In this document: in pieces, positions 9,773 through 14,517 of the stretch
How the letters are laid out: every line of letters starts with the position of its first letter
Numbering within the stretch: position 1 is the stretch's first letter
Source: an uncultured Planctomycetales bacterium
GTDB lineage: Bacteria > Omnitrophota > Gorgyraeia > Zapsychrales > JANLHA01
DNA: 64,000 nucleotides
Assembly: GCA_964374105.1 (NCBI GenBank)
Contig: CAYJXI010000006.1
Span: 2,177-66,176, forward strand
Direction of reading: 5' to 3'
Notes under the pieces: generated by a model
What the model saw: only the letters and a program-made list of their open reading frames with translations
Database searches by the model: none
What the model was told of the DNA's origin: nothing
Made by a program: the position numbers and the translations under genes

Positions 9773-10022
9773 TTTTAAATCTAAGACTTTTACACTAAAC
9801 ACGAGAGAACCTATTTTTGTTTGACAAATGGGAGATCCTGCCTTACTTTATAAAGGCGAATTCACTGTAACGGATCAATTTTTCAATTTCATGAACATCT
9901 TTCGTACGAGAAACTGTAAGTAAGACAATCCAAAGCTGGATTGTCTTTTTTTATTTTTAAAATTTTGAACCGAGTGTATTATTGGAGGAATTGTTTATGA
10001 AAAGAATTTTCCTATATTTGAT
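9773..10022. repeat. 250-bp direct repeat, copy 1. The last 201 nt (9822-10022) are 100% identical to 14317-14517. It contains a solo ISL3-IRR-like 40-nt segment followed by the MORN-gene promoter, RBS and the first 9 codons (MKRIFLYLI, then a stop)
   Basis: Direct comparison with 14268-14517. The first 40 nt carry a few mismatches (2-4) (aatctaagacttttacactaaacacgagagaacc versus aatctaagactcttacactaaatacgaaagaacc). The rest is identical. Confidence 0.85.
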
Positions 10023-10536
10023 TTGATGACTGCTTGATAGCGGTACATATTATTTTTCCCCCTTTCGTTGATGAACGCGAAAATCGACTGCGTCCCGAAG
10101 GGTCGACCTTTGCCGACATTATAGCATGCGTTTTTCTATCCGCAAACCATACTGCAGGATAAATCTTCTGACCCGGGCCGGTATTCATTTTCTTAAAATT
10201 ATTTTAATACCACATGAGCCAGAACGCATTGTGGACAGGAACGTTATCGTTTAAAGGGAAAGCGTTTTCCCCTCAATATGCCGCCCTCTTGTAACTAGGG
10301 TATTGATAAGGTATATTTATTACAAGAGATACAAACAGCAAATTATGTGTTCTTTAAAAATTTTATCGTAAACGGCCATTGTAAAAAGTAAACTGCTCGC
10401 AAGGGTAGGACCCCTGGATCACCTGGTTCAGGGCGTTGTCCTGATGGCGGACAACGACAAAGCTATAGGGCCCTGCCGCCTTCTAAAAGAGGCGGGGTTG
10501 CCAGTTGCCAATGGATTAAACTTTTAACTACCCAAA

Positions 10537-10574
10537 CCTATTCTTCGAGTTGCGGAATAGGTTTTTTATTTTGT
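10537..10574 (+). terminator. Rho-independent terminator-like hairpin (CCTATTCttcgagttgcgGAATAGG plus a T-run), immediately upstream of the 744-aa gene
   Basis: 7-bp perfect stem followed by TTTTTTATTTT. No annotated ORF lies upstream of it on the + strand in 10025-10536. Confidence 0.5.
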
Positions 10575-10608
10575 CCGGGATTTTTTATCTCAAGGGAGTT
10601 GTATTGCT

Positions 10609-12843: not shown

Positions 12844-12922
12844 TCAATCTGCAATTGATTGGACATCCTTTTGATTAAACGACAGGTTCAGCAGTAAAAC
12901 AAATTCTCCTTTTGGTTTTTTC

Positions 12923-14306
12923 CCCTCTTTCGTATTAAGCGTAAATGAATTGATGTAAAGATTTAAAAGGCAATTGGAAAGAAAAAAGCATCGTTTGCCA
13001 AGAAGAACTGATAAAGTTTGTTTAGAGACGAACTGATCAGGAGGCAAAACGATGCAAGGATATAGTATCAGGAAGGCGTTCAAATTTCCAGAGTACAAAA
13101 TAACCGAGATAATAGAGCAGACTGAAAAAGAGATTCATATACGGATCGAGCCATATAAGCGCAAGGCATTTATCTGTTCAGGATGTGGGAATGTGCACGG
13201 TGGAATGCCGCGTGGGATGACGGAAATGGTCGCAGAAGATCTGCGGCTAACTGACAAGCGAGTTTATTTGCATGTGATTAAGCGACGGCGAGGATGTCCT
13301 AAAGATGGCCAGATTCATGTTGAAGCTATTGAATGGTTAAAACCGCGATCCCGAGTGACAAACAGATTAGCGCAAGAAGTGTATCGACTGACAGCAATCA
13401 CGACGAACAAAGAAGCTGGGTGGTATCTGGGATTGGATGATGAAAAAGTGTACAGGATTGATCGGGAAAAGTTGGAGGAATTATTCCAAAAGTATTTGGT
13501 CCCTCCCCCTGCGGCAAGAAACATGAGTGTCGATGAAGTGTCGTGGCTAAAGTATCACCGTTATTTGACGAATGTCATTGATACGGACATTAAGAAGGTG
13601 GTGTGGAACGATCAGGGGCGAAAGGCGGAAGTTTTAGACAGATACTACAGGGGTATTGGAGCGGAGAATTGTGAAAAGATTGAGTCTGTGGCGTTAGATG
13701 GAGCCCGGACATATATCAGCTCGATGAATGAACATGCCAGGAGAGCCTTGATTGTTTACGATAAATTCCACGTGGTCCAGAAATTAAATATGGCGGTGGA
13801 TACGGTGCGCCGACAAGAATTGCGGAAGGCACGAGACAGTCACCGGGATGATCTTATTGAGATGCTGGATTGCCATCAACGGTTTATCTTACTGAAGAAC
13901 AAAGCGAATCTAACACAGAAGCAAGCCGATCATTTGAAGCGTTTATGCGAGGTCAACGAGCCGATTTACAAGGCCATGCTTCTCAAAGAAAGTTTTCAAG
14001 AGGTTTATGGGCACAATGATGAAATGAAAGTCAAAGAATGCTTAGAGGCCTGGATTGACCAAGCGGTATTGAGCGGACTTGAGGTTTTCAAGGGATTAGC
14101 CGAAAGCTTCCGGGATAAAATGTAATACATTCTTAATTGGTTTAAGAAAAGAATCAGCTCAGCCATCTCGGAAGGGTTTAATAATAAAATCAAACGGCTT
14201 AAACGCATGGCGTACGGTTATCGAGATGCCGGGTACTTCCTGCTGAAAATTCACCAACATTGCGGACTTTTAAATCTAAGACTCTTACACTAAATACGAA
14301 AGAACC
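12923..14306 (+). mobile_element. ISL3-family insertion sequence (about 1.38 kb) with imperfect terminal inverted repeats of about 45 nt
   Basis: IRL from 12923 is CCCTCTTTCGTATTAAGCGTAAA...AGATTTAAAAGGCAATTGG. The reverse complement of IRR, ending at 14306, is GGTTCTTTCGTATTTAGTGTAAGAG...AGATTTAAAAGTCCGCAATGTTGG. The termini resemble the canonical ISL3 GGCTCTTTCG ends. Confidence 0.7.
13052..14125 (+). CDS. ISL3-family DDE transposase. It is interrupted by an in-frame TAA at 14123-14125; homology continues in the same frame to about 14299
   Basis: N-terminal zinc finger (CSGCGNVHGG) and central MSVDEVSWLKYHRYLTNVIDTD...VALDGARTYISSMNEHARRALIVYDKFHVVQKLN, which is the ISL3 DDE core. After the stop, the same frame reads YILNWFKKRISSAISEGFNNKIKRLKRMAYGYRDAGYFLLKI, which is the conserved ISL3 C-terminal block (nGfvEGlNnKIKliKRraYGfrnf.nf.lri). 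Confidence 0.75.
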   Translation: MQGYSIRKAFKFPEYKITEIIEQTEKEIHIRIEPYKRKAFICSGCGNVHGGMPRGMTEMVAEDLRLTDKRVYLHVIKRRRGCPKDGQIHVEAIEWLKPRSRVTNRLAQEVYRLTAITTNKEAGWYLGLDDEKVYRIDREKLEELFQKYLVPPPAARNMSVDEVSWLKYHRYLTNVIDTDIKKVVWNDQGRKAEVLDRYYRGIGAENCEKIESVALDGARTYISSMNEHARRALIVYDKFHVVQKLNMAVDTVRRQELRKARDSHRDDLIEMLDCHQRFILLKNKANLTQKQADHLKRLCEVNEPIYKAMLLKESFQEVYGHNDEMKVKECLEAWIDQAVLSGLEVFKGLAESFRDKM

Positions 14307-14517
14307 TATTTTTGTTTGACAAATGGGAGATCCTGCCTTACTTTATAAAGGCGAATTCACTGTAACGGATCAATTTTTCAATTTCATGAACATCTTTCGT
14401 ACGAGAAACTGTAAGTAAGACAATCCAAAGCTGGATTGTCTTTTTTTATTTTTAAAATTTTGAACCGAGTGTATTATTGGAGGAATTGTTTATGAAAAGA
14501 ATTTTCCTATATTTGAT
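14268..14517. repeat. 250-bp direct repeat, copy 2. It overlaps the ISL3 IRR and continues into the promoter and 5' end of the intact MORN-lipoprotein gene
   Basis: See copy 1. Confidence 0.85.

Follow-up and report, generated by a model that had tools for sequence, protein, structure and literature searches.

A 250-nt direct repeat beside a defective ISL3-family element and a riboswitch-type fibre gene: a likely scar of local rearrangement

Organization of the repeat and of the ISL3 element

A 64-kb stretch of bacterial DNA, hereafter called the window, whose sequence is carried by contig CAMTXN010000026.1 of the short-read metagenome-assembled genome (MAG) GCA_947085705.1, contains a direct repeat that duplicates the start of a MORN-repeat lipoprotein gene on either side of a fibre gene and an insertion sequence (IS) of the ISL3 family. 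As shown in Table 1, the locus begins on the left with a HEAT-like gene and unique intergenic DNA (A′), which is followed by the first copy of the repeat (9773-10022). The bracketed segment (10023-14267) consists of a 586-nt non-coding stretch, the gene of a 744-aa Peptidase_S74 protein and the ISL3 element, and the second copy (14268-14517) leads into the MORN gene.

Table 1. Features of the repeat locus, in window coordinates
Feature	Position	Strand	Remarks
HEAT-like gene, 620 aa	7732..9594	+	weak HEAT_2 match; upstream, left-side context anchor
A′, unique intergenic DNA left of copy 1	9595..9772	.	ends ...CTCAATTTTT; without IS homology
Solo right-end inverted repeat (IRR′), ISL3 lineage, without IS body	9773..9811	+	3 mismatches vs 14268-14306
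R copy 1, 211 nt	9812..10022	+	100% identical to 14307-14517
Spacer, left end of bracketed segment	10023..10347	.	holds promoter-like site
Promoter-like site TTGTAA-17-TATATT	10289-10317		promoter scan; 60 nt upstream of aptamer
Variant c-di-GMP-I-type riboswitch aptamer candidate	10376..10514	+	RF03167, 20.3 bits, E=0.029
Putative intrinsic terminator (expression platform) of leader	10537..10573	+	CCTATTC...GAATAGG + T-run
Secreted fibre protein gene, 744 aa	10609..12843	+	Gly-rich repeats; C-terminal Peptidase_S74 intramolecular chaperone domain (PF13884, 1.1e-15)
Defective ISL3-family IS, 1384 bp	12923..14306	+	DDE_Tnp_ISL3 matches either side of stop
ISL3 left inverted repeat	starts 12923		tip CCC, not GGT
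ISL3 transposase frame	13052-14293		in-frame TAA at 14123-14125 (codon 358)
ISL3 right inverted repeat	14268-14306
R copy 2, 211 nt	14307..14517	+	functional upstream region and first 9 codons of MORN gene
MORN_2-repeat lipoprotein gene, 451 aa, intact	14492..15847	+	Pfam MORN_2, 4.3e-75

Repeat search, MAFFT alignment and BLAST agreed on a repeat of 250 nt with 98.8% identity. The three mismatches between the copies (9789, 9800 and 9805) all lie within the first 33 nt, and from there on the copies agree over 217 nt. When the whole window was compared with itself by BLAST, no second repeat longer than 155 nt appeared. The repeat period is 4495 nt, and the locus comprises 1.06 turns of that period. 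Each copy joins the final 39 nt of the right IS end to a 211-nt flank, designated R. A search with the 39-nt pattern gave two matches in the window, at the start of either copy, compared to none expected in shuffled sequences. The last 39 nt of the IS are thus also the first 39 nt of copy 2, whereas copy 1 opens with a diverged right end (IRR′) to which no IS body belongs. A search with an nhmmer profile of the IS (--max) found only one piece in the 64-kb window other than the element itself, namely the last 41 nt at 9772-9812 (E=1.8e-5; profile positions 1346-1386), and no further IS remnant, body, left end or partner of the solo repeat that could form a miniature inverted-repeat transposable element. 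These results bear out the preliminary description of this DNA, which had tied the repeat to the IS in the same way.

R contains, in this order, the IS-flank octamer TATTTTTG, a 31-codon open reading frame (ORF), a strong predicted terminator (hairpin 9922-9947, 11-bp stem and T-run), 40 nt, the ribosome-binding site (RBS) GGAGGA, an ATG and nine codons. It has no Rfam match, and its predicted fold is not exceptional (z=-1.6). In copy 1, the ATG at 9997 is followed by MKRIFLYLI and a TGA at 10024-10026, just outside the repeat, whereas copy 2 runs on into a 451-aa MORN_2 protein with the lipobox LIGC. The duplication of the RBS and the MKRIFLYLI start, with a stop after nine codons in copy 1, can thus be read directly in the sequence. 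The same cannot be said of the promoter, which the preliminary description had included in the duplication: a promoter scan reported no sigma-70-like site between the R terminator and the ATG. The sole good -35 hexamer in R (TTGACA) lies upstream of the terminator, and its pairing TTGACA-17-TACTTT, read by eye, is weak. The junction 10022/10023, where copy 1 ends, is a non-homologous join with a microhomology of 2 nt (AT). A 58-aa minus-strand ORF in A′ was found by sequence lookup in the MAG alone.

The element next to copy 2 encodes an ISL3-type DDE transposase (PF01610, residues 159-355 at 1.3e-42 and the portion downstream of the stop at 1e-13) that is 81% identical to 413-aa relatives, but its full frame is interrupted by a TAA at codon 358, which is CAA (Gln) in the 90%-identical relative L028. 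The ends of the element and its target duplications were defined by aligning six independent relatives, which have the ends GGTTCTTTCG...CGAAAGAACC and AT-rich 8-bp target duplications (ATAATTAT, TTTTTTAG). In the window, the right end is canonical (CGAAAGAACC), whereas the left end is preserved only from TCTTTCG inward and has the tip CCC instead of GGT; the flanks are GTTTTTTC and TATTTTTG, so that there is no 8-bp target duplication. The element, which had been taken to be complete, is therefore defective, and it is best read as a full-length but dead relic whose left junction looks like a rearrangement breakpoint. The nonsense codon, the aberrant left tip and the lack of a target duplication argue that the IS was not the recent maker of the structure.

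The repeat is not a transposase-made target duplication, as had been recognized before, since a duplication of 211 to 250 nt compares with 8 bp in this IS lineage; moreover, 39 of the 250 nt belong to the IS, and 2.9 kb separate the left copy from the left end of the IS. Nor does the locus have the make-up of a composite transposon, because the left side holds only a solo right end of 39 to 41 nt. The possibility that R is a passenger or part of a longer IS end was rejected, since GAACC forms the end of the relatives and is followed there by unrelated DNA, and since IS-only contigs measure 1386 bp. Both right-end repeats share lineage-specific bases (TCTAAGAC) that are absent from the relatives. 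Most relatives of the IS lie on IS-only contigs of about 1.4 kb, and the closest intact relative found has 90% DNA identity and comes from another sample only. The intact copy and the many IS-only contigs indicate that the lineage is apparently multicopy and active elsewhere, although the window copy seems to be dead. The intact copy, which belongs to the same ISL3 lineage, encodes 413 aa and occupies positions 57-1447 of L028, a contig of the unrelated run SRR22388198.

The repeat in a second strain

The k=31 Logan assembly of run ERR3478686 is interrupted precisely at both borders of the identical stretch: contig L005 corresponds to window positions 3494-9835 and contig L003 to 9993-14330. 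By itself, the k=31 graph is also compatible with a chromosome containing one R and a 4,495-bp circle. The MAG contig could in that case have gone around a loop of the graph once, the true state being a single R, an explanation favoured by the short-read origin of the MAG, by the break of the Logan contigs at the repeat edges and by a 217-nt identical stretch that exceeds the usual k-mer sizes. Evidence on this point came from contig L029 (ENA ERZ27284380, MEGAHIT k139, 2707 bp), which stems from a different sample and from a strain diverged by ~1.3%. It matches window positions 7577-10282 with 33 mismatches in 2707 nt and one indel (98.7% DNA identity) and runs unbroken from the HEAT-like gene via A′, the solo IS end, R and the nine codons into the spacer, with an identical junction. 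A′ is thus joined to the spacer through R in a separately assembled strain, and the junction of the nine codons with the spacer occurs in L003 as well as in L029. A third data set (Logan ERR4904391, contig L027) covers window positions 10178-13487 with one mismatch and confirms the join between the fibre gene and the IS.

Because this independent, diverged contig has the same path and the same junction, the structure is real and linear on its left side and older than the strain split of ~1.3%. The right side of the window strain (IS-R-MORN) would follow from the MAG contig and from the logic of the graph: given a real path from A′ through R into the bracketed segment, the path from this segment through the IS into R must continue to the MORN gene, and a 4.5-kb circle with no replication gene and with a dead transposase is an implausible replicon. 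The caveat of an assembly artefact, raised with the preliminary description, is thereby largely answered, directly for the left path and by graph logic for the right. Accordingly, the duplication is genuine, vertically inherited and dispersed, and comprises the last 39 nt of the IS and the 211-nt right flank up to codon 9 of the MORN gene.

Comparison of the window with L029 showed 5 differences in the 178 nt of A′, 3 in the 39 nt of IRR′, 4 in the 211 nt of R, at window positions 9865, 9910, 9961 and 9974, and 4 in 260 nt of the spacer, whereas the two R copies within the window strain show none in 211 nt. If the duplication predates the strain split, at least 4 differences between the copies would be expected, and finding none has a Poisson probability of ~0.02. 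Furthermore, the three mismatches between the copies are all found no more than 33 nt from the edge of homology (P=0.002), a zone that gene-conversion tracts rarely reach. The lack of differences between the copies, compared to four between the strains, and the clustering of the mismatches at the edge suggest that gene conversion may have homogenized the R copies in the window lineage. The passage of the L029 assembly through R at k=139 suggests that the copies of that strain share no identical stretch of 139 nt, or else that it lacks copy 2.

The four variable sites of the right-end repeat are distributed as a mosaic among window copy 1, window copy 2, L029 and L028. At position 9789, a T specific for copy 1 of the window strain changes the hexamer CTTACA of the IS end to TTTACA, which creates an outward-facing promoter-like site (TTTACA-17-TATTTT, 9789-9817) that extends from the solo IS end into the flank octamer; its counterpart in copy 2 is below the threshold of the promoter scan.

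The fibre gene and its leader

The best homologue of the fibre protein, with 38% identity, is encoded by a Candidatus Omnitrophota MAG. Its relatives, named "tail fiber domain-containing" by NCBI, are chromosomal in MAGs of Omnitrophota, WOR-3, Zixibacteria and Planctomycetota, and matches to PHROG tail-fibre families lie mainly over the S74 C-terminus. In IMG/VR, neither a relative of the fibre protein nor a match to R was found, and no transfer RNA (tRNA) or integrase-type landmark is present in the window. A phage origin was rejected on these grounds.

Upstream of the fibre gene lies a leader that resembles cyclic di-GMP (c-di-GMP)-I riboswitches (GEMM-I, RF01051/RF03167) in its P1 stem, a GNRA-capped hairpin, the motifs ACAAAGC and GCCAGUUGCC and a downstream terminator. 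In contrast to known members, the aptamer of the window scores only about 20 bits (20.3 bits compared to a gathering score of 59, hence below threshold; E=0.029 in a search of 628 nt), which is explained by the insertion of ~46 nt forming two hairpins at the aptamer junction (10411-10456), and it is a candidate riboswitch. Leaders of related loci were compared with it. In L021, an Omnitrophota locus, a c-di-GMP-I-GGC match precedes the first fibre gene (3091-3184, 44.2 bits, E=1.7e-7), and in the paralogous locus L024/L025, which comes from the same run as the window, a c-di-GMP-I match precedes the second fibre gene (L024 2654-2714, L025 3530-3590, 32.9 bits); these scores, too, are below the respective gathering scores of 59 and 35. 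According to alignment and blastn, the window leader has a GCAA-capped hairpin and the motifs ACAAAGCUAU and GCCAGUUGCCAAUGG in common with these leaders. Its P1 stem covaries with that of L021, and the terminator CCTATTCTTCGAG...GAATAGG with its Ts is common to the leaders, being conserved in L021 and L024 and appearing as a hairpin in the fold. The spacer further upstream showed no similarity to the IS, to the paralogous loci or to Rfam families in blastn, tblastx, nhmmer and Rfam searches.

The GC content of the fibre gene (0.49) is like that of its paralogues (0.49 to 0.53), and its leader is homologous to theirs, so that nothing marks the gene as foreign cargo. It appears to be a self-contained unit with its own promoter-like site, riboswitch-type leader and terminator. 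The idea that the repeat supplies the "cargo" with a spare promoter found no support, since these elements are kept at the paralogous loci; read-through from copy 1 would have to pass the R terminator and then the terminator of the leader itself. The position of S74 fibre genes behind c-di-GMP-I-type leaders suggests that the Peptidase_S74 fibres of these bacteria may be cellular surface structures under second-messenger control rather than phage tail fibres.

The paralogous or orthologous "native" fibre loci show a further common trait. In these, a pyrR/pyrB operon is oriented divergently from the pair of riboswitch and fibre gene, together with a PyrR-binding leader (RF00515, 46.9 to 65.8 bits; L021 2770-2889 and L025 640-765, both on the minus strand). 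The fibre unit of the window lacks this neighbourhood of PyrR leader and pyrR/pyrB.

Origin of the repeat and its surroundings

We consider the repeat to be probably a passive scar of a local segmental rearrangement around a resident ISL3 element that is now dead, and neither a product of the transposase nor a functional module. That the junction between IS and R is present twice indicates that it was copied locally. The starting order would have been fibre-gene unit, ISL3, R and MORN gene. A tandem duplication of ~4.5 kb (4,495 bp) of the unit formed by the fibre unit, the IS, R and the nine codons, closed by an illegitimate join, would have created the junction 10022/10023, and a later deletion would have removed the upstream copy of the fibre unit and of its IS body except for the last 39 nt. 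A T-run at 9768-9776, at the boundary of A′ and IRR′, may have served as microhomology for this deletion. The upstream copy would then be a pseudo-start of nine codons and a TGA, the downstream copy would serve the intact MORN gene, and the fibre gene would be expressed from its own riboswitch-type leader. The same product could arise in one step by a template switch that places the 250-nt block upstream of the fibre unit. Tandem duplication followed by deletion appears to be the most economical history, and a template switch or a Campbell-type re-integration would fit as well; all three are ordinary outcomes of recombination or replication.

The label "insert" or "cargo" used for the bracketed DNA is an assumption, as an empty site was found neither among the representative genomes of GTDB, where the HEAT-like and MORN proteins have no relative closer than 38-43%, nor in the JGI metagenomes, where the HEAT protein and a 32-nt R pattern gave no close relative. 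A search for MORN homologues returned no close orthologue, but says little, since the query itself was not among its results and the clustered protein collection lacks the exact MORN sequence. It may be that the fibre gene was there first and that the duplication concerned the 250-nt block only.

Several points weigh against a rearrangement of this kind. The favoured path requires two events, and its breakpoint on the left nearly matches the inner edge of the 39-nt terminal repeat, which is a coincidence under purely illegitimate recombination. No un-duplicated or empty genome was found, so the order of events is deduced from a single end state. The path IS-R-MORN of the window strain is drawn from the MAG contig together with the logic of the graph; the Logan contigs (k=31) end at R. 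The argument for gene conversion draws on four single-nucleotide differences and on a second copy that, in the L029 strain, is unseen.

Direct repeats that bracket DNA, with one novel non-homologous junction, as present in the window, are found after tandem duplication and likewise after Campbell-type integration. In single-crossover integrations of the Campbell type, or in remodelled tandem duplications, homologous direct repeats bracket the intervening DNA and allow excision and gene conversion. Here, a 4,495-bp circle of R with the nine codons, spacer, fibre unit and IS would have recombined via R with a resident IRR′-R-MORN arrangement, and the repeats would permit excision and re-integration in the manner of a translocatable unit with no recombinase of its own. 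The 1.06 turns of the 4,495-nt period are the signature of such an integration, the R copies are identical, the three mismatches lie at one end as expected for a crossover to their right, and the k=31 graph allows a loop. We nevertheless regard this history as unlikely, if with an appreciable residual chance. The circle must already have carried R, so that a prior duplication or an excision from the same locus has to be added; genes for replication or for a recombinase are missing from the unit, whose transposase is dead; the left junction is integrated in both sampled strains; and neither an empty site nor a circle was seen in the assembled sequence searched. The truncated IS end of one repeat, moreover, is left unexplained by simple integration.

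A mobilization of the IS and its flank by the transposase, either as an ISEcp1-type surrogate or one-ended event or as a former composite IS-[R-fibre unit]-IS whose left IS decayed, is in our view quite unlikely. It would agree with the orientation of the solo IRR′ and the left repeat of the IS, which flank R and the fibre unit as two directly repeated IS would, and with an active, multicopy lineage elsewhere (many IS-only contigs of ~1.38 kb). On the other hand, nhmmer and BLAST found no surrogate IS end at or near 10022, no candidate unit is flanked by 8-bp duplications, DNA outside the right repeat has the wrong geometry for a unit ending at that repeat, and the cargo would need to open with the very 211 nt found beside the other IS, so that a prior local duplication is once more implied.

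As had been proposed, direct repeats of 250 nt could in principle allow excision by RecA-dependent recombination. That they form a maintained recombination substrate, its copies held identical through gene conversion, by which a 4.5-kb module of riboswitch-fibre unit and IS relic loops out and re-enters upstream of the MORN operon, is very unlikely; if true, it would provide an Omnitrophota-like bacterium with an on/off presence switch for a surface fibre that needs no dedicated recombinase. An assembly loop circled once over a single R has, given the contigs described above, hardly any likelihood. Two independent ISL3 insertions into the same hotspot upstream of two pre-existing R copies would suit a lineage that favours T-rich octamers such as TATTTTTG, TTTTTTAG and ATTTTTCA, but are scarcely credible, as they demand that the identical nucleotide was hit twice and leave the earlier duplication of R unexplained, and the TCTAAGAC bases shared by the right ends indicate one insertion that was later copied.

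As a whole, the locus most likely represents a rearrangement scar of an ordinary, known kind and not a new type of mobile element. Solo terminal repeats are left behind when transposons such as Tn10 and Tn5 are excised nearly precisely, and the window likewise holds a terminal inverted repeat of ~40 nt without element body, next to a T-run that is a possible microhomology at the deletion edge; here, however, the right repeat alone remains, there is no palindromic remnant, and the event would be a deduced one. With its ISL3-family relatives, which have the terminal repeats GGTTCTTTCG...CGAAAGAACC and 8-bp AT-rich target duplications, the element shares the DDE_Tnp_ISL3 transposase, a size of 1.38 kb and the right end, and the window copy departs from them by the three defects described above. 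IS copies that lack a target-site duplication are recognized markers of rearrangement, adjacent deletion or IS-centred duplication, as documented experimentally (Ngan et al. 2024, mBio, PMC11708052). Like these, the window has an IS with no target duplication between duplicated DNA, for which an error of recombination or replication fits best. Unlike these (PMC11708052), the duplication has only 250 nt, is dispersed over 4.5 kb and includes 39 nt of the IS; the IS itself is dead, and a deletion seems to be needed as a further step.

The locus thus adds one more case in which an IS together with illegitimate or homologous recombination appears to have remodelled part of a bacterial genome, with a pseudo-start and a solo IS end as remnants. 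It also calls for caution: in a MAG, k-mer graphs break at a perfect repeat of ~217 nt, and one can take the "insert" for mobile cargo. Given the downstream copy of the second strain, it would offer a small natural case for measuring concerted evolution of short dispersed repeats. A more interesting by-product may be the S74 fibre genes behind c-di-GMP-I-type leaders in a lineage that is poorly sampled and probably Omnitrophota.

The neighbouring genes on the left include the HEAT-like gene, whose protein was found in exact form in the MAG and in L005, and as a variant of the same cluster (≥90% identity) in L029. Upstream of it, positions 1-7700 resemble a small island of defence or toxin-antitoxin type with a Polbeta/NTP_transf_2 nucleotidyltransferase, two Hypoth_Ymh proteins, an Mrr_N protein and a TPR protein; the region of the Hypoth_Ymh pair contains a 76-nt repeat (785-858 and 3994-4069), and a HEPN protein is encoded just beyond the window on L005. 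On the right, in the region 15856-29602, an ORF of 3371 aa with Pro/Gly/Gln-rich low-complexity tracts begins 8 nt after the MORN gene. It has no Pfam assignment in the precomputed annotation, contains internal duplications (23336-23487 and 24719-24870; 23979-24105 and 24126-24252) and is followed by the gene of a 1199-aa subtilase. Farther downstream, ORF 45543-46604 contains a tandem pair of 110-nt units with 84.5% identity (46195-46427).

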